DNA from: a virus
Taxonomy: Duplodnaviria > Caudoviricetes
Reading direction: 5' to 3' (one strand)
Virus record (IMG/VR): IMGVR_UViG_3300037461_000323
Location: 1-37,346 of that record
DNA length: 37,346 bases
Shown here: piece by piece, positions 2 through 29,400 of the stretch
Numbering within the stretch: position 1 is the first letter of the stretch
Layout of the letters: each line of letters starts with the position of its first letter
Position numbers and translations under genes: made by a program
The notes under the pieces: generated by a model
Database searches by the model: none
Told to the model about the DNA's origin: nothing
What the model saw: only the letters and a program-made list of their open reading frames with translations

Positions 2-496
2 CTACAGGAAGAGCTTCACGCGAATGACGTTCTCCTGAGAAATGCGTGGGAAAACTATCGTGGCGCGAAAGAGGTACTGGATGAAGTCAACTTCATCATG
101 GCGCTGTCTGAGGAGACAGAGGAGATCGCAGAGGGGGAACAGAGGCGCAGGAACACCGGGATAACCCTCAAGGCACGCAGGCAGGCTATGGCTGAGGTGC
201 AGTTCTGGTGGAAAGAGATTCACAGCTTGCGCTCTGACAGGTCTAGGATGCTCGGCCTGACGGCCACGGGTATCGCCATCAACATCGACAACCGGGAACA
301 AAAGCTTCTCGTGGCGAATGGCAATAGCGGCAATGCCCCGGTTCAGCTACCTGAGAAGATCTACATCGGATTCGATCCTGATAGAGACTGGCCAGATCCG
401 CCCACACCACAGGGGAGACCTTCTGAAACAATAACGGCCGCGCGTGAAGAGGCAGTAGAGGGAGAGTACGAAGATGCCGCCACTGACTCAGGATGA
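2..496 (+). CDS. Putative terminase small subunit (5'-truncated by window edge)
   Basis: The frame of ORF 98..496 is open back to base 2 (LQEELHANDVLLRNAWENY...). Helical protein directly upstream of and overlapping terL. Function assigned from position only. Confidence 0.55.
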   Translation, partial: LQEELHANDVLLRNAWENYRGAKEVLDEVNFIMALSEETEEIAEGEQRRRNTGITLKARRQAMAEVQFWWKEIHSLRSDRSRMLGLTATGIAINIDNREQKLLVANGNSGNAPVQLPEKIYIGFDPDRDWPDPPTPQGRPSETITAAREEAVEGEYEDAATDSG

Positions 497-3122
497 CTTG
501 ATCGCGGCCGAGCGGAAGGGGATCTCCATCTTTGAGCCGATGTCGTGGCAGAAGAAGGTGATGCTTGATACCTCTTCTGTCGTTCTGCTCACGGGTGGTG
601 GCGGTGGTGGAAAGGCTCTGGCTCTCGATACGCCTGTTCTTACGCCGTCCGGATTTGTTCCTATGGCCGATGTCCATATAGGTGATATCGTGTATGACAT
701 GGACGGCCAGCCGGTACAGGTCATCGATGAGACCGGGGTCATGTACGACAGACCGTGTTACGAAGTCGTGTTTTCCAGTGGTGAAACCGTCATCTGTGAT
801 GCCGAGCACGAATGGGTTGTCGGTATAAGCGGCATCCGCAACGGAGATACTCTGAGGCTGGTAACCACACGAGATATGTACGACAACTTCAACCGTGGGC
901 GGCCGTACTTCGTTCCGGTGACTCAGCCTGTGAATCATTCAGAGGCAGATCTGCCTATCGATCCGTGGTTTCTTGGCTTCATGATTGGAGATGGATACAT
1001 GCCAAGACTGTCCTTCTCCACGGCCGATCAAGAAATCGTAGACAGAATATCCTCTATCCTACCAGCGGGATCAGAGATTAAGCCTGCTGGTGGATACAAC
1101 TATGTAATCAACTACGGTGCTTCCGGCCAGAAGAGTCCGCGCAACCGCATAACCGGCTACGTTCATCCGACAACGAATAGCAAGTCCGGCCGATGGACGG
1201 CGTTCGCCATGAACCCGCATATCTATCTCGGCCAGTATGGCAGCGAAGATGAAGCATGGGAAGCTGTGTACGTGCATAATGGGAATCGGGATAGGTTCTA
1301 CCGAGACGCAGGAAATGGGTTGAAGAGTGACCTAGAGTCTCTTGGCCTGCTTGAGTGCAGATCGGCAGACAAGTTTATCCCGGACATCTACAAGTACGCT
1401 TCAGTAGAGCAGCGCCTAGAGTTGTTGCGCGGCCTGATGGATGCGGATGGGTCGTGTCAAGCAGGGCGCGGCCGTAGCGAGATGACGGTCATTAGCGAGA
1501 GGTTGGCTTGGGACGCGCATGAAATGATGTGCAGCTTGGGCATCAAGTCGCATATCGGATACAAGAGGGTGACCTTTGATGGCCGCGAGTACGATGGTTG
1601 GCGAATAACCTTTACCACGACCATGCCGGTATTCTGGTTGCCAAGGAAGGGCAGGAATCTACCGCGTAATACCAGCAGTATCGTTGAGCGCCGAATCATA
1701 GAGTCGATAACCCCCGTTGATTCTGTTCCCGTTAAGTGCATCTCTGTCGAGACCGGAACTTATCTGATAACAGAGTCCCATATCCCAACGCATAACAGCC
1801 GCGTTTCATACGAGAAGCTTGTTGCGTTCGCGCTTCGCTACCCACGGTCTAATGTTCTGGCGCTCAGAAAGGAACTCAACGACTGTGAGCGGTCCGTTAT
1901 CCCCACACTGGATGATCATGTGCTGGCCGAACTGGCCAAGAAGCGGAAGGCCGGAGAGAAAGAGCAAACCGTCACGAAGCGCGTGAACCAGCGCTGTTAC
2001 ATATGCAGTAATGGTAGCCGTATCTGGTGGGGTGGTATGCGGAACGCGGCCGAGCGGAAAGCCATCCGCTCTATCGGTGCCGGTGGTAGCCTTGACTTTG
2101 TTCTCATGGAAGAAGCGATTGAGTTTGAGGAAGAGGACTTCGATGAGGTCCGCGGCCGTATGCGCGGACGGGCCGCGCCGTGGAGACAGATTCTTCTGGT
2201 CACGAATCCTGACGCGCCTCTCCACTGGATCAACCGTCGCTTGATTGTCGGTCAGGAAGCGTCCGTGTACCTGTCTATGGCCAGAGACAATATCTACCTT
2301 GACGAAGAGTACATCGGAAACCTTGAGACGATGACGGGTATAGAGGGTATGAGACTCGGTAAGGGTCTGTGGGTTGACGGCACCGGGCTGGTCATCGACA
2401 CGTGGCAGAACTCGTTCAGCACGGCAACAGGGGATGATAACGGGGGAAACGTCACGCTCTCCGCTGACTACATCCCGAACGGCGGCCGAGTCGTCTGCTC
2501 AGTCGATGACGGGTACGCAGGACAGTACGACAAGAAGTCCAAGATGTTCACGGCTAATTCACACCCGCGTGTATTCCTGCTGGCGCAGATACGGCCGACC
2601 GGGCAGGTAGCTGTGTTCTATGAAGACTACGCCATCAAGGAGAGGTATCGCGCTCAGATCAACCGTCTCCTGAAGACTTGCCAGAAGAACGGCTGGCCGA
2701 GACCCTCAGAATTTCACTATGACAAATCCTCTGCTACACTAAGAGGTGAGCTTGAGGCGGCCGGGTTCAGGCAGCTTTACCCAAGCACGTCGAACCGGGA
2801 TGAGTCCATCAAGCTTCTCAAAGAGAAGGTGGCGGCCGACGGGAATGACTTCAGGGAAGTCATTGTGCACCCGCGATGCCACCACCTGATACTTGAGATG
2901 TCATCGTGGTCCATGAAGGATAACCAGCCGACGAAGATCTTTGACCACGGGCCTGATAGTCTCAGGTACCTGATAGCAAACATTGATCGGGGGTTTACCG
3001 GGGAAGGTCAGGTAGGCGTGAATGTTCCCGAAGGGGAAGCGGGGGACAGGCTTGAAAGAAAGCTGAGAGAAATAGATGAGATCATGGACAGGATAGATAG
3101 TCGGATCGGGGTAGGAATCTAA
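474..3122 (+). CDS. terL: Terminase large subunit containing an intein
   Basis: Walker A LLTGGGGGGK|S is split by the intein. Walker B FVLMEEA, LLVTNP coupling motif, nuclease motifs SVDDG and DHGPDSLRY. About 488 aa after splicing. Confidence 0.95.
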   Translation: MPPLTQDDLIAAERKGISIFEPMSWQKKVMLDTSSVVLLTGGGGGGKALALDTPVLTPSGFVPMADVHIGDIVYDMDGQPVQVIDETGVMYDRPCYEVVFSSGETVICDAEHEWVVGISGIRNGDTLRLVTTRDMYDNFNRGRPYFVPVTQPVNHSEADLPIDPWFLGFMIGDGYMPRLSFSTADQEIVDRISSILPAGSEIKPAGGYNYVINYGASGQKSPRNRITGYVHPTTNSKSGRWTAFAMNPHIYLGQYGSEDEAWEAVYVHNGNRDRFYRDAGNGLKSDLESLGLLECRSADKFIPDIYKYASVEQRLELLRGLMDADGSCQAGRGRSEMTVISERLAWDAHEMMCSLGIKSHIGYKRVTFDGREYDGWRITFTTTMPVFWLPRKGRNLPRNTSSIVERRIIESITPVDSVPVKCISVETGTYLITESHIPTHNSRVSYEKLVAFALRYPRSNVLALRKELNDCERSVIPTLDDHVLAELAKKRKAGEKEQTVTKRVNQRCYICSNGSRIWWGGMRNAAERKAIRSIGAGGSLDFVLMEEAIEFEEEDFDEVRGRMRGRAAPWRQILLVTNPDAPLHWINRRLIVGQEASVYLSMARDNIYLDEEYIGNLETMTGIEGMRLGKGLWVDGTGLVIDTWQNSFSTATGDDNGGNVTLSADYIPNGGRVVCSVDDGYAGQYDKKSKMFTANSHPRVFLLAQIRPTGQVAVFYEDYAIKERYRAQINRLLKTCQKNGWPRPSEFHYDKSSATLRGELEAAGFRQLYPSTSNRDESIKLLKEKVAADGNDFREVIVHPRCHHLILEMSSWSMKDNQPTKIFDHGPDSLRYLIANIDRGFTGEGQVGVNVPEGEAGDRLERKLREIDEIMDRIDSRIGVGI
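615..1796 (+). mobile_element. Intein (394 aa, class 3 type) with LAGLIDADG homing endonuclease
   Basis: Starts ALALDTPVLTPSG and ends IPTHN|S. Block B DAEHEW, block F VPVKCISV, LAGLIDADG motifs FLGFMIGDG and LLRGLMDADG. Confidence 0.93.
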
Positions 3123-7449: not shown

Positions 7450-8832
7450 ATGTCTGAACAACGGAATTTCGCTGAGAAAGTCGCCCCGAACGCACAATAC
7501 TACGGTCCGGGCGGCTTTATGAGCACTCCCGCGCTTGAAAATCCTGTCATCTCGACTCATATCCGGCCGATGGGCTTGGATGAGTATCTCCCGGCTTACC
7601 CGGCGACAGTGGTCAACCCGCTGTACCCCGTGTTTACTGGTGTGACTGACGAAACGGGCGCTGAGCCTGCCACCGTCTGTGATGATGGTCCTACGGCGCT
7701 ACTCAAGGGCGCTACTATGACGGCCAACTTCGGCCGCATCATGCGCTCAACCCCTGTCATGGACAAGGGGCAGTTATCCGAGACCGTTCGTGGGCAAACG
7801 ACTGACCTCAGCCTCTTGGCTGCTCAGGGCGCACCCGGCGGCCGCCTGAATGTCGGGAACCTGTCGGTTCCTACTGATGATATTCTCCGTTACGCCACTC
7901 GTGGCGCGTTCTTCGTTGTGGGCACCATCCTGCAACGCAAGCTGTCCCGCATGTTGTGGGCTGGCAACCCGGCGACGAACAACCCGGCGACTGACGGCTA
8001 CCGTGAGTTCCCCGGCTTGGACTTGCAGATCGGCACCGGCCGTGTAGACGCGCTGTCCGGTGTGGCTGTCCCGTCCCTTGACTCCTATGTCGTGAACGCC
8101 AACTATGCCAACGTCAACGACTACGGCATCGTCGCCGCGCTTGAGGACATGGAAGCCCGTCTGCGTAACCGCGCCATGAACCACTTCGGTACGGCCGAGT
8201 TCGCTCTCGTCATGCTGCCGGAGATGTGGGACCAGTTGACGCGCATCTGGCCGATTCAGTACAACACGACTCCCGGCATGTACGTCATGCCCGGTATGTC
8301 GAACGTGTCTGTTTCTGTCAACGCTGACGCAATGGTCGCCGCCCGTGATGAAATGCGCCGGACACGCCGCATCACCATCAACGGCTACGACTACCCTGTC
8401 ATTCTGGATCATGGTATTGCTGAGGAGACCACGGCCGATGTCGGCTCTCTAGACCCCGGCACCTATGCCAGCACGATCTACTTCATCCCGCTTACTGTGG
8501 CTGGCGGCTTCCCCGCTACCCGCATCGAGTACCTTGACTTCCGCGTCGGTATTGCCGAAGAGCAGCGCGCCGGTCTCAACACCGGCTTGGTCTGGACTGA
8601 CGATGGTAAGTACATCTGGTCGGCCAAGGAAGAGCATACCTGTTTCTGGTTCCGGGCGCGCATCGAGCCGCGCGTTGTCCTGCACACGCCGCATCTGGCT
8701 GGCAAGATTCAACGACTGGTTGTTGCCCCGCCGAGCCACTACGAATCCCCGTACCCGGATAGCGCCTACCACGTCAATGGTGGTCTGAGTGTCCGGCCGA
8801 TGGAGACGTTCTACACTCCTTGGAGTGCCTAA
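7450..8832 (+). CDS. Major capsid protein (460 aa)
   Basis: GGAGG at 7436-7440 supports ATG 7450 (MSEQRNF) rather than 7333. Position after the protease, LWAGNP...EFPGLD motif, strongly biased codons, followed by a strong hairpin. Confidence 0.85.
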   Translation: MSEQRNFAEKVAPNAQYYGPGGFMSTPALENPVISTHIRPMGLDEYLPAYPATVVNPLYPVFTGVTDETGAEPATVCDDGPTALLKGATMTANFGRIMRSTPVMDKGQLSETVRGQTTDLSLLAAQGAPGGRLNVGNLSVPTDDILRYATRGAFFVVGTILQRKLSRMLWAGNPATNNPATDGYREFPGLDLQIGTGRVDALSGVAVPSLDSYVVNANYANVNDYGIVAALEDMEARLRNRAMNHFGTAEFALVMLPEMWDQLTRIWPIQYNTTPGMYVMPGMSNVSVSVNADAMVAARDEMRRTRRITINGYDYPVILDHGIAEETTADVGSLDPGTYASTIYFIPLTVAGGFPATRIEYLDFRVGIAEEQRAGLNTGLVWTDDGKYIWSAKEEHTCFWFRARIEPRVVLHTPHLAGKIQRLVVAPPSHYESPYPDSAYHVNGGLSVRPMETFYTPWSA

Positions 8833-8857
8833 TCAGCAAGTTTGATTAACCCACTTG

Positions 8858-8891
8858 GTGTAGGGGCTGACCCACAGCCCCTACACACTTT
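8858..8891 (+). terminator. Hairpin after capsid gene (weak terminator or mRNA stabiliser)
   Basis: 12-bp stem GTGTAGGGGCTG/CAGCCCCTACAC with only a short ACTTT tail. Confidence 0.65.
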
Positions 8892-8903
8892 ACAAAGGTG
8901 AAT

Positions 8904-9353
8904 ATGAACCCTTTTTCATCTCTCCTGAAATCTCGTAAGTTCTGGCTGGCTGTTCTTGCTTTTGTGCAGGTGCTAGTCTTTACTTTGAAGCCATCATTCC
9001 CTCAAGAGTTATGGGCGGCCATCAATGAGGTCCTGCTCGTTCTGATCATCTCCGTGACCGTCGAGAATGTAGGTACGTTTGCGGCGGCCGCCATCGCGAA
9101 AGACTCGGCCTTTCAGTACCGGGCTGTCGCCCTGACTTCCGAAACGTCACGATGGCCGTGGCTGTTTCGTTCACGAAAGTTCTGGCTTGCCGTCTTGGCT
9201 GTTGTCCAGACCGTTGTATTCTCGTTACTACCTGAGTTTCCTGATGAACTGTGGCAGGGTATCAACACGGTGTTGATGGTCGTCATCGGGATGTACGCAG
9301 TTGAGGATGTTGCCGCTACCGTGTCATCGGCCGTGAAGTTTCGCCAAGAGTAG
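8904..9353 (+). CDS. Holin-like membrane protein made of two tandem copies
   Basis: SRKFWLAVLA occurs twice, each followed by two hydrophobic helices. AAAGG lies 5 nt before ATG 8904; GTG 8898 is an alternative start. Confidence 0.7.
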   Translation: MNPFSSLLKSRKFWLAVLAFVQVLVFTLKPSFPQELWAAINEVLLVLIISVTVENVGTFAAAAIAKDSAFQYRAVALTSETSRWPWLFRSRKFWLAVLAVVQTVVFSLLPEFPDELWQGINTVLMVVIGMYAVEDVAATVSSAVKFRQE

Positions 9354-9376
9354 ACCCTTGAAGCAGGAGAACCTAG

Positions 9377-9679
9377 GTGAGCACAGCTACAACTTCTCAA
9401 TGGATTCTCCTGTATGGATATGTCATCACACTGGCCGTATGCACCTTCTTCTTCTTGACGAATAGGCGCGTACGGCCGGTTGCTTTTGCTGTCGGCTTTG
9501 TCGCCCTCACCCACACGGTCTACTACCTAGCCTTCTTGGTGTATCCAGGGTGGCTTGATGGAGTACAGACCATGAACTTTTCGATAGCGATCAGGTTCCA
9601 CATCCTCTTCACCGGAATTGCATCCCTCATTCTCACCGTCTTGCACTATAAGGCGAAAGATAGGAGAGGTAGTGAGTGA
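9377..9679 (+). CDS. Small three-helix membrane protein
   Basis: AGGAG before GTG. Three hydrophobic segments and a basic C-terminus. Confidence 0.75.
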   Translation: MSTATTSQWILLYGYVITLAVCTFFFLTNRRVRPVAFAVGFVALTHTVYYLAFLVYPGWLDGVQTMNFSIAIRFHILFTGIASLILTVLHYKAKDRRGSE

Positions 9680-10208
9680 TACAGCCCTCATTATTGTTGT
9701 CGGGATGCTGCTCACGGCCGTAACCTTCGCGTTCTTATGGAAGCAGGGCGTTGGGCCGGGGATCATCGAGAAGCAACAAGATAGCCTAGATAAACAGCAC
9801 GTCCGTATCGAGCATCTCCAGCAGGAGATCGATGAGCTACGCACGGCCATGCTTCTTGACCGGGATCTACTGGCCGCTATTCGCGGGGAGATGAAGGAGT
9901 GGCGGCGGGGGATGCAGATCAACTTCGATCAGATGAAAGAGGCTGGACTTACGCCCCGCTGGATACCGCGTAACATGGATGAGATCCTAGATGTGCCCCG
10001 GCCGAACAGTACCCTTGCTCAAAAACTGGCTGAGCGCTTCAACGTAGAGGAGTTGGACTCTCTGGCGTACGACATCGGTATACTAGCTGACGATTTCACC
10101 GGAGAGACGAGACAGTCACGCGCAAGAGAACTTGTTCAGGTTGCCCACCGACTCGGTATGACGGCGAAGCTTAGGGAGAGGGCCGCGCAACTCAGGAAAG
10201 ACTTCTAG
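9672..10208 (+). CDS. Membrane-anchored coiled-coil protein with C-terminal EAD7-like domain
   Basis: GGAG before GTG 9672. N-terminal TM helix, heptad region, then LAERFNVEELDSLAYDIGILADDFTGETRQSRARELVQVAHRLG. Confidence 0.7.
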   Translation: MSDTALIIVVGMLLTAVTFAFLWKQGVGPGIIEKQQDSLDKQHVRIEHLQQEIDELRTAMLLDRDLLAAIRGEMKEWRRGMQINFDQMKEAGLTPRWIPRNMDEILDVPRPNSTLAQKLAERFNVEELDSLAYDIGILADDFTGETRQSRARELVQVAHRLGMTAKLRERAAQLRKDF

Positions 10209-10237
10209 TAGCTACCAAATGTAGCTACTGCTATAAT
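10207..10237 (+). promoter_or_regulatory. Extended -10 promoter with a double palindromic operator
   Basis: GTAGCTAC at 10208-10215 and 10221-10228. TGcTATAAT at 10229-10237, 5 nt before ATG 10243. Confidence 0.7.
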
Positions 10238-10242
10238 GTGCC

Positions 10243-10560
10243 ATGAGGCACATTATGAGAGTACGACTCACAAAGAAACTTCGAGAAAATGTAATGCGTG
10301 CGGCCGCTCTTTCAGGGGAGTCTATGGCCGCGTTTGCGCGTCGGCAAATATCTCTGTTGCCAGACAAGGATAACTCCGCTAAAAACGACGAGTGGGTAGA
10401 TACTTCTATTCGCTTGAGTGATGCCGAAATTGATAAGCTGGATGGTGTGGCCGTCAGGCTGTACACCACACGTAATGGTGCGTTGAATGCTATCCTAGAT
10501 GCGGCCGCATCCAAGGTAATCGGAGAAGATAATGCGCGTACGAATGATTCCGGACAGTGA
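10243..10560 (+). CDS. Tandem ribbon-helix-helix DNA-binding protein
   Basis: Two RHH-like units: IMRVRLTKKLRENVMRAAALSGESMAAFARRQI and TSIRLSDAEIDKLDGVAVRLYTTRNGALNAIL. Confidence 0.7.
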   Translation: MRHIMRVRLTKKLRENVMRAAALSGESMAAFARRQISLLPDKDNSAKNDEWVDTSIRLSDAEIDKLDGVAVRLYTTRNGALNAILDAAASKVIGEDNARTNDSGQ

Positions 10561-12913
10561 GCAACTGGTAGGAGTCGGTGGAATATCGACAGTCATCACG
10601 AAGTATTACGAGCACATGCCAAAGCACGGGGTGACGTTCGTCGGGCCAACGGATCATTATGATGTCCAGTTGGTTCACGCCGGAGTGACCAACTTCGACA
10701 GCCCAAGAGGCTGTAACGTGGCATCCCTTCACGGAATGTACTGGACCGGCGATCACCCGGCCATGACGAAGCCCCACTACGTGGCAAACGCCAGAATCAC
10801 AGAGAACATCAGGCAGGCGCTTGTTGTGACTGTTCCCTCAGAGTGGGTAGCACAGACAATCAGGCGCGAGTTCAGGATCAATCCCTACATCGTTCCTCAC
10901 GGTGTGGACATAGCCGATTGGGAAGGCGGCCGTGACGAAGGTTTCGTCTTGTGGGCGAAGAACACGGTGTCCAACGTCTGTGACCCCACTCCGGTCATAG
11001 AGGCATCCAAGATTCTCACGAACGTCCCGTTCGTCTCCACCTTCGGCCCCAACACGTCAAACTTCAGCGCCAAGGGCGCGCCGTTCACCGAACAGGAGAT
11101 GAGAAAGGTGATGCTTGGATGCTCTGTGTACCTATCCACCTCTCAGGAGACGTTCGGTATCGCCACGCTTGAGGCGATGGCGGCCGGGAAGCCCGTTGTA
11201 GCGTTCAATACCGGGTTCCAACCCGTCATTCACAGGGTGACCGGCTACATAGCCAGAAACGGAGACATCGATGACTTCGTTCATGGAATCAAGTGGGCGA
11301 TGGAACACAAGGAGAGGCTCGGCCAGAACGCCAAGATGGTAGCGGCGAATTACACGTGGGACAAAGCGTGTTTAGCCATGATTGAAGCGATGATGGCGGC
11401 CGAAGATCTGACCAAGAGAAACAAGACTGTCACCGTCGTCATCCCCTACCGAAACAAGGGTCATGTCCTGCGCGAAGCAATCGACAGCGCCTTGACTCAG
11501 CAATGCTCAGAGCCGGTCAAGGTCATCGTGGTGGATGACGCATCTGATGACCAGATAGCCAAGGAGATGACTGACGCTTACTCAAAGAAGCAGGTCAAGT
11601 ACGTTCGTTTACAGGAGAGGTCTGGCGTAGCGGTTGCCAGAAATGTGGGGATCGACTTGGCTCTTGGGGAATACATCGTCTGTCTGGATGCTGACGATAT
11701 GATGGCACCGGGGTACATCGACACCTGCTACCGAAAGCTTGCTCATGACCGAAGCATCGGGATAGCCTATACCGGGCTAGGACAGATCCACGAGAAGGGT
11801 ATCGTCAAGTCGGAATGGCCGGGAGAGTTCGACTTCTGGAGACAGGCGGCCGGGCACAATCAGGTGCCGACAGCGGCTATGTTCAGGAAGGAGATGTGGC
11901 GCAGAGTCGGCGGCTACCGGGCGCGGTACACACGCTATGCGCGGCTAGGGTTCGGCTCAGAGGACGCGGCTTTCTGGCTGCACGGAACAGCCATCGGCTA
12001 CCGGGCGGTGCAGGTCACGCCCGAGCCTCTGTTCTGGTACCGGCCGGGTGGATCTACATCCCGTAGCGGCTACCGGGAACTCCCGTGGCACAACTTCTAC
12101 CATTGGGACGCTCTTGGCTATCCGGCCGGGGCACCACCGAAGGGCACAATCCCGTCATGGCCGGTGAACATTTACGATCCGCCCAACGTGTCGGTGATTA
12201 TCCCTGTCGGTCCGGGGCACGAAGGGTATCTGCCTGATGCAATCGATAGCGTTGAGGCGCAGAGCTATCGCCGGGTTGAGGTCATTGTCGTGTGGGACAG
12301 CCCGGAGAAAATCCCGTCTTGGTACACGACAGGCTATCCGTACGTCAAGTTCATCAAGGGAAAGGGATCTATGGGCGCTGGCGCGGCCAGAAACCTAGGG
12401 GCAAGCAAAGCCCGGACTGAGTTCGTCGTGTTCTTGGACTCTGACGATATGATGCTTGCGGGGTTCCTTGAGTCGGCCGTGAGAGAGTGGAACAAGCACA
12501 GGGCGATCATCTACACGGACTACATCGGGAGTCATGATATTCCAGAGGGGCAAGACCCGAAGAAGCTGAAAGGATACACCGGCCATGACCCGCTCATGGG
12601 TGTAGCCTACAACCGGAACAGGCTGTACGACTTTGACCCTGAAAAGGCGAAGCGGCAGCCGGAAGAGATTCCGTACGTGTGGAGTCTGGTCACCTGCTTC
12701 CTACCACTCAAGTGGTTCAAGGCAATCGGCGGGTTCAAGGAAGATCTTGAATCGTGGGAAGATTGGGATCTCCATGTACGTCTGGCGAAGGCGGGGTATC
12801 CCTACTTCCATCTGAAAGATTGGCTGCTACACTACAGGGAGAATCTTGGTAAGAGATCCACGGAAGCGGAACTCCGCTGGAAGGAGTGGAATCTACCAGA
12901 GAGGATAGGTTGA
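10532..12913 (+). CDS. Three-domain glycosyltransferase (GT4/GT-B + GT2 + GT2)
   Basis: ETFGIATLEAMAAGKPVV (GT4). VTVVIP...VDDASDD...ARNVG...LDADD (GT2). VSVIIP...ARNLG...LDSDD...EDWDL (GT2). Confidence 0.92.
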   Translation: MRVRMIPDSEQLVGVGGISTVITKYYEHMPKHGVTFVGPTDHYDVQLVHAGVTNFDSPRGCNVASLHGMYWTGDHPAMTKPHYVANARITENIRQALVVTVPSEWVAQTIRREFRINPYIVPHGVDIADWEGGRDEGFVLWAKNTVSNVCDPTPVIEASKILTNVPFVSTFGPNTSNFSAKGAPFTEQEMRKVMLGCSVYLSTSQETFGIATLEAMAAGKPVVAFNTGFQPVIHRVTGYIARNGDIDDFVHGIKWAMEHKERLGQNAKMVAANYTWDKACLAMIEAMMAAEDLTKRNKTVTVVIPYRNKGHVLREAIDSALTQQCSEPVKVIVVDDASDDQIAKEMTDAYSKKQVKYVRLQERSGVAVARNVGIDLALGEYIVCLDADDMMAPGYIDTCYRKLAHDRSIGIAYTGLGQIHEKGIVKSEWPGEFDFWRQAAGHNQVPTAAMFRKEMWRRVGGYRARYTRYARLGFGSEDAAFWLHGTAIGYRAVQVTPEPLFWYRPGGSTSRSGYRELPWHNFYHWDALGYPAGAPPKGTIPSWPVNIYDPPNVSVIIPVGPGHEGYLPDAIDSVEAQSYRRVEVIVVWDSPEKIPSWYTTGYPYVKFIKGKGSMGAGAARNLGASKARTEFVVFLDSDDMMLAGFLESAVREWNKHRAIIYTDYIGSHDIPEGQDPKKLKGYTGHDPLMGVAYNRNRLYDFDPEKAKRQPEEIPYVWSLVTCFLPLKWFKAIGGFKEDLESWEDWDLHVRLAKAGYPYFHLKDWLLHYRENLGKRSTEAELRWKEWNLPERIG

Positions 12914-17479: not shown

Positions 17480-20400
17480 ATGCCATCACTCGCGCAAGTC
17501 GGTGCGGTAGCAAGCGTATACGGTGTCAACCGCTATGTAAGCGGCATGAGGCAGATCGCGACGGAAACGTCTCGTACCAGCGCCACTGTCCGTACGGCTA
17601 CCAAGCTGATGAGCGGCAATCTCTTCACCGGGCTAGGTGCCGGGTTGAACAATGTTGGTAACCAGATCAAGATGATCGGGAACAACATTGCTCAACTCGG
17701 CTTTGCTTGGAGTACCACCTTCGGCATTCTGGCCGTAGCCGGTCTGAGCGCGATGGTCCGCGCCGGAATGGAGTACGAGCAAACCCTACAGAATATCCGG
17801 CATCTGACTAACTCCTCAGAAGAGGAGATGAACGCTTGGGCGCAGAAGCTACTTGAGCTTGGTCCCAAGCTTGGTAAGATGCCGCAAGAACTGGCGGAGA
17901 GCCTGTACTTTATCAAGTCAGTTGACTTGCGCGGCGTGACGAATCAGCTTGAGGTTCTTGAGGCCACGGCTATGGCTTCGGCCATCGGCATGGGGCAGAT
18001 GGAACCCATTACTAAGTCTGTCGTGTCTATCCTTGAAGTCTATGGCGACACAGGATTGACCGCGACAGAAGCCACGAACGGCCTTCTCGTCTCAATCCGT
18101 CTTGCAGCCTTTGAGGCTGACGGCCTGACCAGATCCTTCGCCCGTGCCCTGCCGTTTGCCAAGGCGGCCGGTATCAGCTTCGGTGAAGCGGCCGGTTTCC
18201 TTGCCATGTACTCCAGAGATGGCGCTTCGGCCGAGATGGCCACAACCGCGCTCATCAACACGCTCAACTTCGTCGTTGACCCGACGCAAGAAGCGAAGGA
18301 CACGCTTGAGGAGTACGGCTGGTCCATCCAGAGCGTTCGTGACTCAATCGCCGGACCGAATGGACTCAACGGTACGCTTGTCGTTCTGGCCGAGACGATG
18401 GGAACGGACATCGCCCGTCTGTTTACAACACGCGCGACATCCGGCGTGCTGGCCGTCACTGATCAGGCTGACGAGTACAGGAGAATCGTTCAGGAGATCG
18501 AAGCGGCCACAGATCTGGCCGTGGGTGAAATCAGCGAACTGGAAGAGGCGTTCCTTGATTACTCAAAGGGCGTGAACTTCGCGTGGAACGCCACGAAGGC
18601 TGGCTTCCAAGCGCTGGCCATTCAGGGCTTTCAGGCGATCAAGGCACCACTGGCGGCCGTCCTTCTCCAGCTAAGAGATTTCTTGGATGTCATCAGGGAG
18701 ATCGTCTACAACAATCCGATGCTGGCTGAGATGGCCCTACGGTTCATCCTGATCTCGGCCGCTATGGGACCGGCGCTCATTATCCTAGGCGCGTTTATCA
18801 GGTCAATCGGAAATGTGATGACCCTGCTTGCCGTCCCCCTGCGGTTCGTCGGCTACATGTTGCAGATTGTCCAGACGAACGCGCTCGGCCTGTTCATCCT
18901 CTTTCATGGTGTAGGGAAGGCGGCCGTCAGGGGGCTGCAAACAGGTCTCCTCAACTCCATGATGGTCATGAGGATGTTTGTCCGCCAGTTGTGGGTGACG
19001 AGAAACGCGGTCTTCGCCCTCACGGCCTCATTCCTTCACCTGAATACTCTCAGCCGCAGGCTGATTAGCGCGAATATCGCTTTCCCGTTCGTTATGCTCG
19101 GCGGGTCAATCATCAGGGCGAACAGGCTGTTCGTTTTGCTGATGACGACTATCAGCCGGGGCGCATTCCGGTTCGCCGCGTTTGTCTCAGCCTTTAATGC
19201 GACCGCGCTTATCGCGAAAGTGACGGCCGTTCGCACAGCCTTTACCGGCTTGGTCTCTTCTGTTGTTGCCAGCAGGTTTGTCGCCATATGGGTTGGCGCG
19301 TTTAACACAATCAGCATGGCGGTATCCGGTCTGGTTGCGCGAATCGCGTTCCTCTTTCCGGCGCTTGGGGCGCAACTATCCAGAATGGGATTCATGCTGA
19401 CTCTCCGGCTTGTTATGCCGGTCCGCGCGGCCGTGGCCGCTGTTGTGTCAGCGTTCAATATTCTCCCGATGGCGTTCGGTCTCGTTCTGGCAGCCGTTCA
19501 CGGAGTCCTGTGGGCTATGGATAGGGCGATCATGGCCGTGCTCAGCCGGATCGCCATGAACATGAGCATCACGATGCTCAAGCTGTGGGACGCGGTGTTC
19601 TTTGCTCTCACGAACATCGCCGGGGCATTGATAACGGCCGTATCTCAGACAGTCGGTCTTGTCCTTACGTCGATGTTCTCGGCCATTATGGCGATGATAC
19701 CCACGGTCATCTCTGCGGCGGCCGCAGCCGTTGGCGCAATCACGTCAATCGCCGGGGCCATCGCCGCCATCGCCGCGCCTGTCGTGGCGGTGGGCGCGGC
19801 CATCGCTGGTGGAATCCTGCTCATCGCTTCTGCGGCCGGGGCCGTCAAGAAAACATTCACTCGTGTCCGGTCGGACTTGAACCGCATCGCCCCTACTATC
19901 GGCGGGGACATGCGCGGCCACGGCCGGAACATCATTGAGCAGTTCGCTCAGGGTATGCTTGACGGCCTGATCGCTGTCGTTCAGGCACTCCGCTATATTG
20001 GAAGAGTCATCAAGTCTTGGCTGCAACCCGGCTCACCGCCTAAGCTTTTGCCTGACCTGACCATTTGGGGTAGCGGGGCGATGTCAGCCTACATGGAAGG
20101 CTGGTCAGAGTTCGACTTCTCCGCGTTCAGCGAGATCTCTGACAAGTTCCGGCAGTTCTTTACCTCTCTCCTGCCAGCAGACGCGACCGCTCTGGATGAG
20201 GCGAACGTCATCGGAAGCCTGATTGAGTTCAGGGACTTGATGGCATCCGCGTTCAACGAGATCGATGCTGTCGGTATGGTGTCTGATACCATATGGGCCT
20301 CAATCAACGCTGGACTACAGGGCGCGTCTCAGGAAATGCAGAACTACGTGCGCCTGACACTGATGGCGGCCGAAGCGCAAGAGCGTGTCAAGGAGATTCA

Positions 20401-22885
20401 GGAACAGATCAATGCGGTTCAGGCGCAGTTCTCCGAGCAGCTTGCGCCGATTGACAAGCGGCTGGCCGAGATCGCTGACATCCGGCAAGAGGCTGTCGAT
20501 GATGACCGCATCAAGGAACTCGAACGCATCATCGCGGACCCGCGTGCCAGCGAACGGGCCAAGATGCTGGCCGCTCTGGAGATTGAGGAGATCGGCCTAC
20601 AGGCAGACAAGGCCGAGATCGAAGAGGAGAGAGATCTACAGCTTGAGGCTCTTCAGGCGCAGCTTGACCTTGCTCAGTCCGAGTACGAGCAGATAGCGTA
20701 CCAAGCGCAACTGGCCGAAGAGATGCTGGCTCTGCAAATTGAGCAGAACGAGCTAATGCGCGAGTGGGCCAAGGCTTTGCAAGAGGCAGAGGAAGAGGCG
20801 GCGGCGGCCGAAGAGGAAGCGGCGGCCGGGGAAGGGGAGTTCGTCGGTGGCGCGTTCCCCGAAGTTGGGGAACCGCCCGACTTGGGAGATCTAGGCGATC
20901 TTGAGGGGCTTGACTTCGGTGATCCGACACGCGCTCTGGATACGAAGCTGCAAGAACTGAGAGAAGAGCTTGGCGGCCTTGCCAGCGATGTGGCTGGTAT
21001 CGGCCAGTTGATTTGGGAACGGATGAATGACCTGTGGAACAGTCGGCTCAAGCCGATATGGGATGGAATCATCAACCATCCGTTCGTTCAGGAGATCTGG
21101 CAGACACTACAGGATACCGTTGGCAATACGATAGACAGGTTCAACGAGATGAAACCGTCGCTTGATGGCGTGAGCCAAGCGATGGACTCCCTGCGGCCGC
21201 TGGCCTACACGCTTGGCTTGATCGTCGTCTCTCTGGTCAATGCCTTCGGGAATTTAATCACGAACCTTGGCGGCATCTTCGGCTCAATCCTGACTAGGCT
21301 AACCGAACTAGCGCCTAGCATCGATCAAACATTCGGTGGAATTCGGGACATCATCAGCGGTGTCATGCGGATGATCAACGGGGACGTAGAGGGTGGATTT
21401 GAGGAATTGAAGGGCGGAATACAACAAGCCTTGTTTGGAGTCCTCAGCTTCATAGGCACTCTATTTGCCGGTATAGTGGACATCGGTATCAGGATCTTAG
21501 CATCTGTCGCAGATTTCGTATTAACCTTCGTAGACAGGATTCTACAGGGCATACAAGAGGCCACAGGAATCAACACGGAGAAGCTTCGCGCATGGATTGA
21601 GGAAGCTAAGCTGTGGCTTCAAGAACTGCTCACAAACACTGACAACATCGGCCTTCTTCTGTGGCAGAAGATGGTGGAGATCTGGAACTCCATCGTTGAG
21701 AGCGTGAGAACGAAGTGGGAAGAGATACGCCTTGCCATCGCTGAGAAGGTAGAGGCCATCCGGGCGGCGATAGCGGAGAAGGTTGAGCTAATTAAAGCGC
21801 CGTTCGTGTCACTGGCCGAGCGAGTCACCGAGTTCGCCACGAAAGTGGGGGAGACGCGGGACCGCGTTGTCACGTCAATGGAAGAGATGAAGGCCGGAGT
21901 AGACGAGAAGTTCGCGTCTATCCGGGAGTTCATACAGTATCTCGTTGACAGATTCCAGTATATGCGCGACAGGATTCAAGCGTTCAAGGATCTGGTCATC
22001 GGTGACATGACGATCCTTGCTCAGAGGTTGCTGGACAAGTTCATTGAGATCACGGGCGGCATAGATAAGTGGCAGATACGTATTGACACCTTCCGACGCG
22101 GCTTTGAAGTGTTTAAGACGCTCATCAATCTCTACATGGAGAATGTCCGCGACCGATTCAGTATATTGATAGAAGCGATCATCGGCTTCTTCAAGGATCT
22201 GGCCGAGAGGGTTGAAGTTCACGTCTTGGCTTCGTTCCGCAAGTTCAAGGCCGAAGCAATCCTTGTCTTCAATGCGTTCAAGGAAATCATCATCGACAGG
22301 ATACAGCTTGTCATAGATATCTTCACGGCGCTAGAAGAGTTCGTCAAGGGCGCGTTGACGAAAGCGATTTCCGATTTCAAGGAATATGCTGTTGGGTGGA
22401 TACAAACAGTCAAGGCTCAGATCGTTGGGAACGTTGAGGCAATGATAGGCGCTTTCAACTCCTTCATGGGCACGATTGAGGGTATATACAACTGGCTGAG
22501 AACCCACGTGTTCCGTATCCAGACAGAGGGCGACCTGCCAAGCGTCGGCGGATCTGGCGGGGGTGGCGGCGGCAATGCGCCACCGGGCGGTTATCCGCAG
22601 GCGGCTCGTGGCGGCTTCTTCAGGAAAGGGAAGCCGGTATGGGTCGGCGAAGAGGGGATCGAGCTATTCGTTCCACATGATAACGGCTCGGTGGTTCCCA
22701 ATAATCGCCTAGAGAAGCTGATGAGAAGTCTCTATATTATGCGACCAGAAGGAGCAATGATGATAGGCAACAGCGCGCCAATGATTTCGTTCGGAGATAC
22801 GTATATAGACAACTCTCTCGACGCGATTAAACTTGAGGCCAGAATACGAAGTGTCGTCATTCGGATGATGGATAGACAGAGGTAG
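17480..22885 (+). CDS. Tape measure protein (1801 aa)
   Basis: TP901-like core, long hydrophobic segment, coiled coil, W/F-periodic amphipathic region, terminal ARGG...VGEEGIELFVP motif. Confidence 0.93.
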   Translation: MPSLAQVGAVASVYGVNRYVSGMRQIATETSRTSATVRTATKLMSGNLFTGLGAGLNNVGNQIKMIGNNIAQLGFAWSTTFGILAVAGLSAMVRAGMEYEQTLQNIRHLTNSSEEEMNAWAQKLLELGPKLGKMPQELAESLYFIKSVDLRGVTNQLEVLEATAMASAIGMGQMEPITKSVVSILEVYGDTGLTATEATNGLLVSIRLAAFEADGLTRSFARALPFAKAAGISFGEAAGFLAMYSRDGASAEMATTALINTLNFVVDPTQEAKDTLEEYGWSIQSVRDSIAGPNGLNGTLVVLAETMGTDIARLFTTRATSGVLAVTDQADEYRRIVQEIEAATDLAVGEISELEEAFLDYSKGVNFAWNATKAGFQALAIQGFQAIKAPLAAVLLQLRDFLDVIREIVYNNPMLAEMALRFILISAAMGPALIILGAFIRSIGNVMTLLAVPLRFVGYMLQIVQTNALGLFILFHGVGKAAVRGLQTGLLNSMMVMRMFVRQLWVTRNAVFALTASFLHLNTLSRRLISANIAFPFVMLGGSIIRANRLFVLLMTTISRGAFRFAAFVSAFNATALIAKVTAVRTAFTGLVSSVVASRFVAIWVGAFNTISMAVSGLVARIAFLFPALGAQLSRMGFMLTLRLVMPVRAAVAAVVSAFNILPMAFGLVLAAVHGVLWAMDRAIMAVLSRIAMNMSITMLKLWDAVFFALTNIAGALITAVSQTVGLVLTSMFSAIMAMIPTVISAAAAAVGAITSIAGAIAAIAAPVVAVGAAIAGGILLIASAAGAVKKTFTRVRSDLNRIAPTIGGDMRGHGRNIIEQFAQGMLDGLIAVVQALRYIGRVIKSWLQPGSPPKLLPDLTIWGSGAMSAYMEGWSEFDFSAFSEISDKFRQFFTSLLPADATALDEANVIGSLIEFRDLMASAFNEIDAVGMVSDTIWASINAGLQGASQEMQNYVRLTLMAAEAQERVKEIQEQINAVQAQFSEQLAPIDKRLAEIADIRQEAVDDDRIKELERIIADPRASERAKMLAALEIEEIGLQADKAEIEEERDLQLEALQAQLDLAQSEYEQIAYQAQLAEEMLALQIEQNELMREWAKALQEAEEEAAAAEEEAAAGEGEFVGGAFPEVGEPPDLGDLGDLEGLDFGDPTRALDTKLQELREELGGLASDVAGIGQLIWERMNDLWNSRLKPIWDGIINHPFVQEIWQTLQDTVGNTIDRFNEMKPSLDGVSQAMDSLRPLAYTLGLIVVSLVNAFGNLITNLGGIFGSILTRLTELAPSIDQTFGGIRDIISGVMRMINGDVEGGFEELKGGIQQALFGVLSFIGTLFAGIVDIGIRILASVADFVLTFVDRILQGIQEATGINTEKLRAWIEEAKLWLQELLTNTDNIGLLLWQKMVEIWNSIVESVRTKWEEIRLAIAEKVEAIRAAIAEKVELIKAPFVSLAERVTEFATKVGETRDRVVTSMEEMKAGVDEKFASIREFIQYLVDRFQYMRDRIQAFKDLVIGDMTILAQRLLDKFIEITGGIDKWQIRIDTFRRGFEVFKTLINLYMENVRDRFSILIEAIIGFFKDLAERVEVHVLASFRKFKAEAILVFNAFKEIIIDRIQLVIDIFTALEEFVKGALTKAISDFKEYAVGWIQTVKAQIVGNVEAMIGAFNSFMGTIEGIYNWLRTHVFRIQTEGDLPSVGGSGGGGGGNAPPGGYPQAARGGFFRKGKPVWVGEEGIELFVPHDNGSVVPNNRLEKLMRSLYIMRPEGAMMIGNSAPMISFGDTYIDNSLDAIKLEARIRSVVIRMMDRQR

Positions 22886-26179: not shown

Positions 26180-26460
26180 TGCCGAAGTTTTCTAGCCAAA
26201 ATTCTCGTGTCAGAGCAAACATCATGACTAATTCTGCGCCAAGGCAGCGGGTTGTCGCTGGCGTGCTGTACTACTGGGTTGGATATTGGGTTCCGGCGTC
26301 GGCCGTCGAAAACATAAGCTACAACGATTCAAACGGGAACGATTCGGAGCGGTACGTTATAAAAGTAGAAGTGATAGACGGCGTGCTAAGGGCTGTCGCC
26401 TACCCCGCGTCACCCGTCATGATCGGGTCCGACCCACCAGTAGAAGGAGATTTGTACTAA
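26179..26460 (+). CDS. Small hypothetical tail-region protein
   Basis: TAATG overlaps at both ends. Confidence 0.65.
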   Translation: MPKFSSQNSRVRANIMTNSAPRQRVVAGVLYYWVGYWVPASAVENISYNDSNGNDSERYVIKVEVIDGVLRAVAYPASPVMIGSDPPVEGDLY

Positions 26461-29400
26461 TGGCAACGTATTACGTTCAGGCGGGTGTCGGGTCTGGCGG
26501 TAATGGATCGTCCGGCAATCCGTTCAAGGACATAAACGCAGCCGATGCGGCCGCATCACCCGGAGATACCATTCGCGTTCGTCCGGGTAAATACGCATCC
26601 GGCCAAGCTATCTACACGAATAACACAACATGGCTGGCGGATACCCCGTCAAATAGGCCGGTCATAGATGGTGGTTATCATATCGGTCTGGCCGTTAAAA
26701 CATTCAATGGCCAAAAGAACGCGATGCCTGCGCCAACCGGATCGACGACCTGTCTCCGCATCAAGGGCGATAACGTAACGGTCGATGGCTTCGTTTGCCA
26801 GAATAGCGAGTATCACGGTATCGGGATATCCGGGGATAACGTGACCGTTAAAAATTGTACGACCTACTTCACGTACGTAAACGGTATCTTCTCGAACGCA
26901 AACAAGCCGGGCGGGACTATCGGCCTGACAATCGAAAACTGTCAGATCTATATGGCATCTATCCGCTATACTGCCGGGCCGACCGGGGCCGGACCAACCG
27001 GAGAGGCGGGTCAGCAGGGTGGGGCCGGGATGCTCCTTGGCGATATGCGCCCACCAGTTCACGTAAACGGGTTGACGGTGGGCTACTGCTTTGGAGAGGG
27101 ACTTGATATCGACAAGGGTTCCCGTGGCACGGAGCAGAATCCTCTCCTGTTCGAGAATCTAAGACTATTCAATTGCAATCATACCCCGCTTTACTTCAAC
27201 AGGACGGCGTGGGTTGTCGTACGCAACTTCGTGTCCTATTTTACCGATGTCGGGATAACGGTCCACGGCGGCGAGAAAGGATTGGCCAATGTGTGCCTTC
27301 GCGTTAAGGACGAGACAGAGAAGAGCGGCGTCAGAACGGAGAATATCGCCATCTATAACGGCATTGTCGTCAACGGTGGTGGATTGATCTCTTGGGGCGG
27401 CGGATCGGGCACGAACGATATGAACGGGGCGCGTGTAACGGAGACCAGAAACTTTTATTTAGGGCACGTAACGGCCGTTGTTGGTCCACACGCAGATCAG
27501 CCAGCGATCCTGATTGGCGCAAACCCCGGCAGGGAGCAGCAGGGCCTGCTTGAGAACTGCATCTTCGATAACTCTATCGGGGAGAACTTCCCCCTATCCA
27601 AGACGTCCGGAACAGTGAAGGTTGTCACCAGAAATAATAACTGGCACACGCCGCCCAGTTCGTACTTTGCAGAACCGACTAATGTTGTCGGATCTCCTGG
27701 GCTGGTGAACCCGACAAAGGTCCTCAGGACAACCGGATACCCCAACCCGAATGCGGTAAACTACTCTCAATTCAATCCGACAGACAACTTTAACGCTAAT
27801 GACTATCGGCCGACCGCGCAATCTCCGGGAATCAACAAAGGTTCCACAGCGGGAAGCGCAGGCGGAACAACCGTTCCAAGTCAGGCGAGACAAAAGGATT
27901 ACGGTGGCGCGAATCGTTCCGGAGTCCCGGATATTGGCGCGTGGGAGTACGGCGGGGTTATTGTGGACCCACCGGATGGAGAGGTCTTCGCCCTCTTCTC
28001 GGCATCAGATACATCCGTCCTTGTCGGGGAGACAGTAAGCTTCACTGACAACTCTTCTGCGACCGGAGACGCGAGTATATCAAAGAGAACTTGGTACTTT
28101 GGGGACGGGGCAACCAGTTCTGCAACTAACCCAACTCATACCTATAACCAACCGGGTTCGTACGTCGTCAGACTTGTAGTAGAGGATACGTCCCTGTTCC
28201 TGTCATCAGAGTATCAGGTAACGATCAACGTGGATACAGCAGTCTCGCCCCCCGGTGGCGGCGTGGTATTCGCTACTGCGCGCGTGGTGCTGCCTACTAC
28301 AAGCACGGCCGGCCAGACAATTACGGCCCCCGAGCTTGACGGTCTCGTTCCGAAGTCGGCAAGACTCTACCTGACAAGGACGACGGCAAACAATACAGCC
28401 GTCAGTGGAGAGATGCTGTCCATCGGGTTCTTTGCGGATGCGGGACAATCTGGTGGCGGGACGAAGGGGAACGCCATAAGCACCAGCACAAAGCATGGTA
28501 GCGCAGCTACGGTAGCCAAGACGTTCATGGGAAGTGAGTCAGGCATGATACTGTCCGACCCGGACTTCGGCGCGTTCGGTGCTATGTATCATGTTGAGTG
28601 GGTACCGAACGGGATGGTAGTCAGCTACAGCGTTGTGCCGGGATACGAAGAGCCATTTCTGCTCACCGTTGTCTTCTGCGCGGGGAACCAGTATCACGCC
28701 AGAGTGATAGAGACGGAACTTAATAATACGGGGGTGGCACCAATCATCTCTCCCGGATTCTCGGCCGACGTAGCTACGTTCCTCTCGTCGTCTCGGTACA
28801 TAGCGATAAACGATCAAGACTCCATCATGTCGATTGGGTACGCGGATAGAAATGGCAATAGCGCGGCTGTCATGAGGTATGCGGGGTCGGGGATCAGCCC
28901 GATTCGGTACACAGAGTCTCTCAATGGCTCAGAGGTCTCCAGACGCCCGTCTGGAGACGGGTACTCCATTGTGAAGGTGCAGTCATTTACGTCGGCGGGA
29001 GTGACTCTTGAGGTGACGGAAAACGATTTCAATGCGCCAATCGCCGTCCTGATGGAGTCATTCGGTGAATCGAGAGCAAAAGTGGGTGTGACAAACGCTC
29101 AGGCGGCAGCAAATGTGCTTGGCTGGCAACCTCAGTATATCGAGCATGTTGTTACATGGAGAGGGGCGGAGGGAATCGGATCGAACAACAAGGCCGGGAC
29201 CATCGGCGTCCATGTTGCCGTTGATGGCGAAGAGTACACAAACTTAATCAGCGGCAGGCACAATGTAACACCGGCCGAAAGTCGTGGGATGACTTCTGAC
29301 TCCATAACTGTCCTCAATAATATCGGGACCGTCTCCGCTAGGGGAACGACCTCTTTTAGCGGAACGGGGTACTCATACAATTGGACTACGGGGCCATACG

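Follow-up and report, generated by a model that had tools for sequence, protein, structure and literature searches.

Described systems closest to the locus

The definition of EAD7 comes from NTP-dependent conflict systems of hosts (Kaur et al. 2020, PMC7159879; 2021, PMC8195603), and in the sections of those papers that treat binding, homotypic contact between EADs is a proposal. The part of PMC7159879 on EAD-coupled conflict systems places one EAD copy on the core component and a cognate copy on the effector, often encoded adjacently. In multicellular bacteria, such adaptors are predicted to connect the parts of death and immune complexes. Among lysis genes, the part of PMC13123898 that covers LysY and LysZ describes a multi-TM protein, LysY, followed by LysZ, which has a TM helix, a long helix, a linker rich in Pro and a C-terminal module. 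The single-TM, N-out/C-in proteins LysF1b and LysA2b are proven lysis regulators, according to excerpts of PMC13056207 and bioRxiv 10.64898/2026.08.27.747656, and single-TM N-out proteins lie beside multi-TM genes in Gordonia phage cassettes, without predicted coiled coils in the portion of PMC9671378 that deals with them. Two further systems concern death folds. In the account excerpted from PMC10312443 (Wein et al.), pCARD of Acinetobacter phage 133 is a CARD-only protein encoded beside rIIAB that inhibits gasdermin defence, and PMC13236601, again in part, reports that LypABC of Caulobacter crescentus is used for GTA release, linking a CARD-NLR-like immune module to the release of phage-like particles.

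The window, a whole virus record of 37,346 bases, encodes a 3-TM protein followed by a protein in which a TM helix and a predicted coiled coil lead to a C-terminal EAD7 domain. With LysY/LysZ of corynephages and actinophages this pair has in common a multi-TM gene, then a TM/long helix/Pro linker/C-terminal element, near holin genes, and with LysF1b it shares the N-out/C-in topology predicted for it; the partner here has three TM helices rather than four, and a folded EAD7 takes the place of the single helix at the tip. Because homology to the D29 pair went undetected (hhalign with single sequences gave 0.4% probability to D29 gp30 and 0.1% to gp29), LysY/LysZ are likened to the pair by body plan and gene order only. 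The likely Chloroflexota hosts presumably lack the LM/LAM layer that LysZ acts against.

Like pCARD, the protein is a phage-encoded death-fold domain without an effector, but it is membrane-anchored, paired with a 3-TM protein and holin-linked, whereas pCARD is a domain-only, soluble decoy; here a TM helix and a 60-aa helix precede EAD7. LypABC differs, as far as the excerpted account goes, in being encoded by the host and in forming a complete set that includes peptidases and an ATPase, whereas the phage supplies the adaptor tip only. The domain resembles EAD7 (PF19960) in passing the family cut-off, in being small, all-helical and non-enzymatic and in its death-like fold; compared with host EAD7s it is single-copy, has no fused effector or core component, is tethered by a TM helix and coil, and forms a subfamily of its own. 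No second EAD7 gene was seen in the phage, the related phage G004 having one match, and the arrangement of a conflict system was likewise not found, there being no effector or core fusion and the neighbours being membrane and virion genes. The sequence-only reading had known of no described phage system of this kind, a claim overtaken by the phage death-fold decoy pCARD as already described in the relevant part of PMC10312443. Our literature search turned up no phage EAD7 or EAD-linked lysis gene, and the source-data tables of PMC7159879 could list such proteins. Both halves, the lysis-regulator body and EAD7, have precedents; for their fusion and its spread we found no published account.

Architecture and fold of the TM-coil-EAD7 protein

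The protein and its parts are as follows.

9672..10208, + strand: TM-coil-EAD7 protein, 178 aa (translation without internal stops, Pfam, AF2)
9681..9737, + strand: single TM helix, aa 4-22, predicted N-out/C-in (hydropathy, K/R bias)
9756..9941, + strand: long helix, predicted coiled coil, aa 29-90 (AF2; coiled-coil matches for aa 1-93)
9954..9968, + strand: PxWxP motif, aa 95-99, at the start of the proline-rich linker (conservation)
10002..10205, + strand: EAD7 death-fold domain, the Pfam part (aa 116-175) being 10017-10196 (Pfam, model, structural matches)

The ORF at 9672-10208 starts at a GTG behind AGGAG, and its start overlaps the upstream gene by 8 nt. Pfam EAD7 (PF19960) matched aa 116-175 of the 178-aa protein at 46.8 bits (E 2.6e-12), well over the curated cut-off of 32 bits, and the EAD7 label given by the sequence-only reading is correct. 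The AF2 model of the full-length protein had a TM-length helix (3-26) and a second helix (29-90), then a linker of low confidence (99-112) that leads to a helical domain (115-175); the order TM helix, coiled coil, helical domain, first read from the letters, was borne out by hydropathy, AF2 and the coiled-coil matches. P95 and P99 of the PxWxP motif were each kept in at least 90% of 104 family sequences.

Modelled alone, the EAD7 domain consisted of four long helices at pLDDT 94. Its eight best structural matches in a search of 48,161 chains were all CARD/Death folds, in keeping with the Death-like fold that had been proposed; the top match was 9frr (Z 8.1, rmsd 2.0, 64 aligned) and the second an Azospirillum bacterial death-like domain, 8ss1 (Z 7.9). 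Death-fold proteins made up 39 of the 50 rows listed, as judged from titles and general knowledge. A Z near 8 is middling by the search tool's own scale, and the death-like fold call rests on the concentration of matches in one superfamily, not on the Z value. Foldseek with the full-length model gave no match at E 0.001, and a PDB sequence search found none. Contigs from an independent run agreed with the window wherever they covered it, the EAD7 part included. These results confirm that the C-terminal domain of 9672-10208 is an EAD7 of the death-like fold class.

The gene pair and its neighbours

The other features of the window that bear on the pair are these.

474-3122: terminase large subunit (Pfam/PHROG match)
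8858..8886, + strand: 12-bp hairpin, putatively terminator/attenuator-like, between the probable capsid gene and three membrane genes
8898..9353, + strand: holin-like protein, 149-151 aa, four predicted TM helices (phrog_297, phrog_14607, Pfam Phage_holin_1, G004 homologue)
9377..9679, + strand: 3-TM partner of 100 aa, with an 8-nt overlap with the next start and a likeness to LysY in position and shape only
10206..10230, + strand: 10-bp inverted repeat, putative terminator or operator, before an RHH-like gene
17480-22885: tape-measure gene (Pfam/PHROG match)

The capsid gene upstream of the three membrane genes is named by position only. The first hairpin was not called by a U-tract terminator scan; the segment 8835-8900 folds at -26.6 kcal/mol (z -4.2), with 0 of 200 shuffles equally stable. 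The repeat at 10206..10230 had z -2.7, with 4 of 200 shuffles equally stable. Two hairpins bracket a three-gene membrane unit, and a promoter scan of 8700-10600 found no promoter-like site. The holin-like protein, whose likely start is the ATG at 8904, matched phrog_297 (holin, E 0.0018) and phrog_14607 (holin/anti-holin, E 0.0022), and its match to Pfam Phage_holin_1 (E 0.013) fell below the cut-off. In G004, a related phage with which the window is syntenic (20 of 21 proteins match), a holin-like homologue likewise follows the capsid gene. No endolysin was recognised by Pfam or PHROG among the 30 window translations scanned; the G004 gene for a GH25 lysin lies upstream of terminase, beyond the start of the window contig. 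No Pfam or PHROG family was found at E 0.001 for any of 24 members of the 3-TM partner, and its ESM Atlas match to DUF5966 (0.90, recognition below threshold) is a lead only. The terminase carries a LAGLIDADG domain mid-protein (aa 312-364), probably an intein.

The neighbourhood was then compared across related loci. Motif scans gave 57 loci, from which 13 were dropped (four without the motif in the ORF scan, two spurious and seven with other EAD7 forms); the remaining 44 and the window formed 28 clusters at 70% identity. A small multi-TM ORF lay directly upstream, mostly overlapping, in 24 of the 26 clusters with upstream room, and in 22 of these 24 it was 3-TM, the 3-TM proteins falling into two subgroups that phmmer did not link. 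With four prophage loci added, neighbourhood counts were made on 32 clusters. Of the 20 clusters with room, 17 had a holin-like gene within -3/+5 kb; the holin seeds for this count were drawn from these loci themselves, and PF23809 is the one seed family to pass its curated cut-off. C39-like, M23 or GH25 genes were seen beside the module in 7/32 clusters. The synteny of holin-like, multi-TM and TM-coil-EAD proteins, which the sequence-only reading had made a test of its proposal, recurs. Its placing of the gene in a lysis cassette holds with a qualification, having as its basis the weak holin match and the gene context of relatives, with no endolysin recognised among the window translations scanned. 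It had rightly seen a membrane protein near a holin but had missed the two-gene module shaped like LysY/LysZ.

A beta-helix gene occurs near the module in 15/32 clusters; its 470-540-aa product is often encoded between the EAD7 gene and the holin-like gene, as at L017:1574-2998 (-), L090:5800-7272 (-) and L089:10316-11941. This protein may serve as a glycan lyase in release or else belong to the virion. Its use as a substitute endolysin is weakened by the window homologue, which is the N-terminal part of a 1417-aa PKD protein: at 26286-30539, in the tail region, a beta-helix-like N-terminal region is joined to PKD repeats.

Extent, selection and membrane orientation of the family

A phmmer search of 1.84 billion representative proteins gave 222 matches at E 0.001, and family statistics were taken from the 150 best of these plus one earlier match. 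Among these 151 matches listed, 109 were 140-235 aa long, 106 of them with an N-terminal hydrophobic helix, and there were at least 106 transmembrane clusters at 50% identity; the remainder were mostly long multi-EAD7 proteins. Many of the 33 long EAD7 proteins scanned were fused to STAND NTPases, CHAT, TIR or SAVED. In the ESM Atlas, 21 of the 30 nearest clusters fell in three EAD7 sets, whose best clusters (172-197 aa) were 50-80% viral among members with a record. Five of the 109 proteins were dropped (three without a TM helix, two atypical), leaving a family alignment of 104 members. A profile of the TM-coil part only retrieved 20 proteins, and all 20 carry EAD7. All 11 pairs of related genes gave a dN/dS under 1 for the TM-coil part (0.00-0.33) and likewise for EAD7 (0.06-0.75); the TM-coil-EAD7 gene is under purifying selection. 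A tblastn search of INPHARED with P0001 and the L014 4-TM protein gave no match, and a related-locus search of viral contigs with the TM-coil-EAD7 protein, the capsid and alignment A3 confirmed nothing; no RNA holder came up.

More K/R residues follow the TM helix than precede it in 104 of 104 aligned members (means 2.9 and 0.14, respectively), and by this bias the EAD7 domain is predicted to lie at the cytoplasmic face, N-out/C-in, as the adaptor role first proposed for it had presupposed. I-spanins have N-in/C-out topology, a coiled coil in the periplasm and a lipoprotein partner. Weak TM-plus-coil matches resemble Rz-like i-spanins (phrog_214 and phrog_89, in 6/23 members each), and phrog_2658 ('hol-like chemotaxis') gave a similar weak match in 5/23 (best E 9e-7); the charge bias of the family is the reverse of that in i-spanins and its domain is of a cytoplasmic type, and an Rz-like i-spanin was ruled out on this topology.

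Coil-EAD7 genes without a TM helix were seen in prophage tail regions (L167:1495-1998, L168:1456-1965, L177:1432-1950), after the probable tail tube gene; in L167 and L168 a 2-TM holin-like gene follows. The membrane anchor is therefore not universal.

Hosts and their EAD7 repertoires

The Promineifilum MAG G001 (Chloroflexota) carries one phage copy of the gene, and G135, of the same order, carries three, in three unrelated prophage-like elements with an HK97-type capsid, a Mu-like portal and a third type, respectively. In each of these elements the TM-coil-EAD7 gene lies downstream of the 3-TM gene and upstream of a holin-like gene, and the ORFs scanned in them yielded no Pfam lysin. All seven class genomes checked that hold a phage copy were EAD7-rich, with 9-24 matches (G001 17, G135 24, G354 12, G270 12, G445 9, G478 20, G456 23), and 14 control genomes had none; EAD7-bearing hosts, on which the sequence-only reading depended, are thus present in 7/7 Chloroflexota carriers. 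Of the three findings that this reading had named as refuting it (no match to EAD or Death-like folds, a domain outside the cytoplasm, hosts without EAD7), none was made, and its interpretation is supported in part. The Phycisphaerales MAG G002 and the Bauldia MAG G003 gave only 1-2 EAD7 matches, probably on phage contigs. The contigs with the module, L051 (G002) and L056 (G003), sit in MAGs without a wider EAD7 repertoire and are probably misbinned, the alternative being hosts without EAD7. A search for the window capsid in 401 class genomes gave no match; the window's own host is likely, by inference, a member of the Chloroflexota.

Hosts lacking peptidoglycan, for which another route of lysis would be required, were considered and rejected: murA was over the cut-off in 4/5 hosts and PBPs in 5/5, with murG matches in 5/5 (one over the cut-off). 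Since the hosts keep murA and PBPs, lysis by an ordinary endolysin is available.

Proposed role in lysis control

We consider a lysis-linked role very probable when the preferred reading and the first three alternatives below are taken together. The preferred reading itself, held tentatively and at a little under an even chance, is that the two proteins control lysis late in infection, with the EAD7 tip binding to EAD7 proteins of the host and thereby keeping its suicide signalling down until the cell lyses. The 3-TM and TM-coil-EAD7 proteins would act in lysis like LysY/LysZ or LysF1a/LysF1b, and coiled-coil oligomers would display EAD7 at the inner membrane face. There EAD7 would bind host EAD7 adaptors or effectors (TIR, STAND and EAD8-trypsin fusions) homotypically, bringing no effector, as with pCARD. 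Host suicide signalling would be held in check, and abortive death delayed until virions are made and the holin triggers.

In favour of this reading count the LysY/LysZ-like body plan, the multi-TM gene (24/26), the holin-like gene (17/20) and the EAD7-rich carriers (7/7), many of whose EAD7s are fused to TIR, STAND, CHAT or EAD8-trypsin; the part proposed for the tip follows the analogy with pCARD. The module's presence in three unrelated G135 elements, the TM-coil profile that retrieved EAD7 proteins only (20/20) and dN/dS below 1 (11/11) also argue for the preferred reading. Against it count the clustering of phage EAD7s with one another, the absence of host tracking, the EAD7-poor G002 and G003, the TM-less variants, the lack of homology to D29 gp30/gp29 and the origin of the holin seeds in the same loci. 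A widespread phage family with such an adaptor on a lysis-type membrane protein offers a natural probe or inhibitor of the predicted EAD death/immune wiring, and lysis timing and abortive infection, usually separate topics, are joined in it. The LysY/LysZ pattern also reaches beyond Actinomycetota with this family, and phages of a little-known group of hosts gain a marker gene.

Descent of the phage EAD7

A FastTree tree was built from 275 EAD7 domains, 104 phage and 171 host. The phage label changes 18 times on the tree, as against 84 when shuffled, and one clade holds 94/104 phage and 13/171 host domains. A single phage clade was not rejected (p-AU 0.75) in a weakly resolved subsample of 91 rows and 63 columns. 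Five phage EAD7s, four from prophages and that of the window, scored higher to other phage EAD7s than to G135/G001 host domains, and prophage EAD7s resembled the EAD7s of their own host no more than those of other hosts, a comparison biased by the choice of the other-host set for similarity to the phage profile. An own subfamily and no host tracking argue against simple mimicry of host EAD7. Fixed phage-host differences lie mainly on helices 2-3, with charge polarity kept overall: position 129 is D/N in 70% of phage and R/K in 52% of host domains, and position 139 is P in 40% of phage and Y/F in 69% of host domains. As in host domains, helix 2-3 of phage EAD7 is acidic (mean -4.9) and helix 4 basic (+2.0). 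The helix 2-3 differences might be what a chain-capping decoy looks like. The pattern is compatible with one ancient capture, after which the domain either took to orthogonal self-assembly or became a generalist capping decoy, two courses that sequence by itself does not separate. According to the part of PMC7159879 on partner EADs, these tend to be each other's closest relatives; given that tendency, the phage-only clustering points to self-binding.

A rather unlikely alternative therefore merits the most weight among the rivals, namely that the protein is a LysY/LysZ-like regulator whose once-captured EAD7 only polymerises the phage protein, clustering the 3-TM partner or the holin, its divergence keeping it from cross-reaction with host EADs. 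The single phage subfamily without host tracking would suit it, as would the complementary acidic and basic helices, the strong conservation and the fixed late position. The coiled coil could, however, already oligomerise the protein. The EAD7-richness of all checked class carriers also tells against it, though capture from such hosts predicts the same. The viral death-fold-only proteins vFLIP and the poxvirus pyrin-only proteins are reportedly host inhibitors, and so is pCARD, in the part of PMC10312443 that describes it.

Candidate host partners

Host EAD7 fusions include those with TIR (EAD7-TIR-FGS), a STAND NTPase (EAD7-nSTAND1), CHAT (EAD7-CHAT) and EAD8-trypsin. Two further host systems might serve as partners. 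The first is an operon of an EAD7-EAD8 adaptor, an EAD8-trypsin and a 3-4-TM protein (L141:4649-8722 (-) in G135, L145:5934-8733 in G001, and L148-L164), which looks like an undescribed protease-to-membrane-effector death cascade. The adaptor was found in 17/151 order genomes with the EAD8-trypsin adjacent in 16/17 loci, and the small TM gene was seen in G135 and G001. G135 also encodes an EAD7-EAD8-trypsin.

The second, also brought to light by the follow-up, is a membrane protein with EAD7 that is found across the order and encoded where the division cluster begins. This 3-TM, Pro-rich, tandem-EAD7 protein occurs in 145/167 genomes of the order and 13/401 class genomes, and its gene lies directly upstream of mraZ-mraW in 12/12 loci, these being the 12 best matches; the loci (L109:811-1695 (+) in G001, L120:685-1728 in G135, and L185-L196) are divergent from a DUF1232 gene. 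The gene was not found in G354 or G270, both carriers of phage copies. The mraZ-linked gene suggests a housekeeping or division role for the 'immune' adaptor domain EAD7. The phage 3-TM partner was considered as a homologue of this host protein and rejected, the TM parts giving no profile match.

It is conceivable, though unlikely, that Chloroflexota phages wired their lysis clock into the host EAD7 network, so that the host's immune or division state times or executes lysis, the plug being either the EAD7-EAD8 adaptor and trypsin cascade or the mraZ-linked 3-TM-EAD7-EAD7 protein. If true, a phage lysis system coupled to a network of bacterial death-fold adaptors would be seen here for the first time, and EAD7 would also have a housekeeping role in division.

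Docking of the tip on the mraZ-linked protein, with the lysis machinery placed at division sites or wall synthesis stalled, appears improbable. The host gene is common in the order and heads mraZ/mraW, its product is membrane-anchored with similar reach, and a conserved target would explain the conserved phage subfamily. Yet few EAD7s are less phage-like than the two tandem repeats (20-43 bits, against medians of 50-71 in other host groups), the gene was missing from the searches of two phage-copy carriers and is rare in the class, and its TM part does not match the phage 3-TM protein.

More doubtful still is that clustered phage EAD7 nucleates a host death cascade to lyse the cell, much as LypABC serves GTA release in the excerpted account of PMC13236601. 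The EAD7-EAD8 adaptor, EAD8-trypsin and small TM protein would supply such a cascade, and the three G135 elements yielded no Pfam lysin among their scanned ORFs. But G004 carries its own GH25 lysin, C39-like, M23 or GH25 genes accompany the module in 7/32 clusters, the hosts keep murA and PBPs, the adaptor is patchy where the module is widespread, and the EAD7s of the adaptor show no special likeness to those of phages (median 50 bits).

STAND/Avs systems sense late structural proteins. A stand-alone anti-defence or superinfection factor, riding the late operon or expressed in the lysogen and having nothing to do with lysis, is equally doubtful: such sensors would make a late decoy useful, TM-less variants exist and many carriers are prophages, but 8700-10600 has no promoter-like site, the gene is translationally coupled to the 3-TM gene and hairpin-bracketed with the holin-like gene, and its position is conserved rather than patchy.

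Other genes observed

Between capsid and tail genes, the window (10243-12913) and L126:14316-19999 carry an RHH-like gene and a large GT4-GT2-GT2 glycosyltransferase, to which G004 adds an epimerase and a DegT aminotransferase; together these genes suggest virion glycosylation. Three loci (L011, L012, L035) encode a host-type EAD7 fused to a putative FHA-like domain, labelled by eye from the sequence. G004 also encodes, at L128:3902-5260 (-), a phage sulfatase with a TAT signal.
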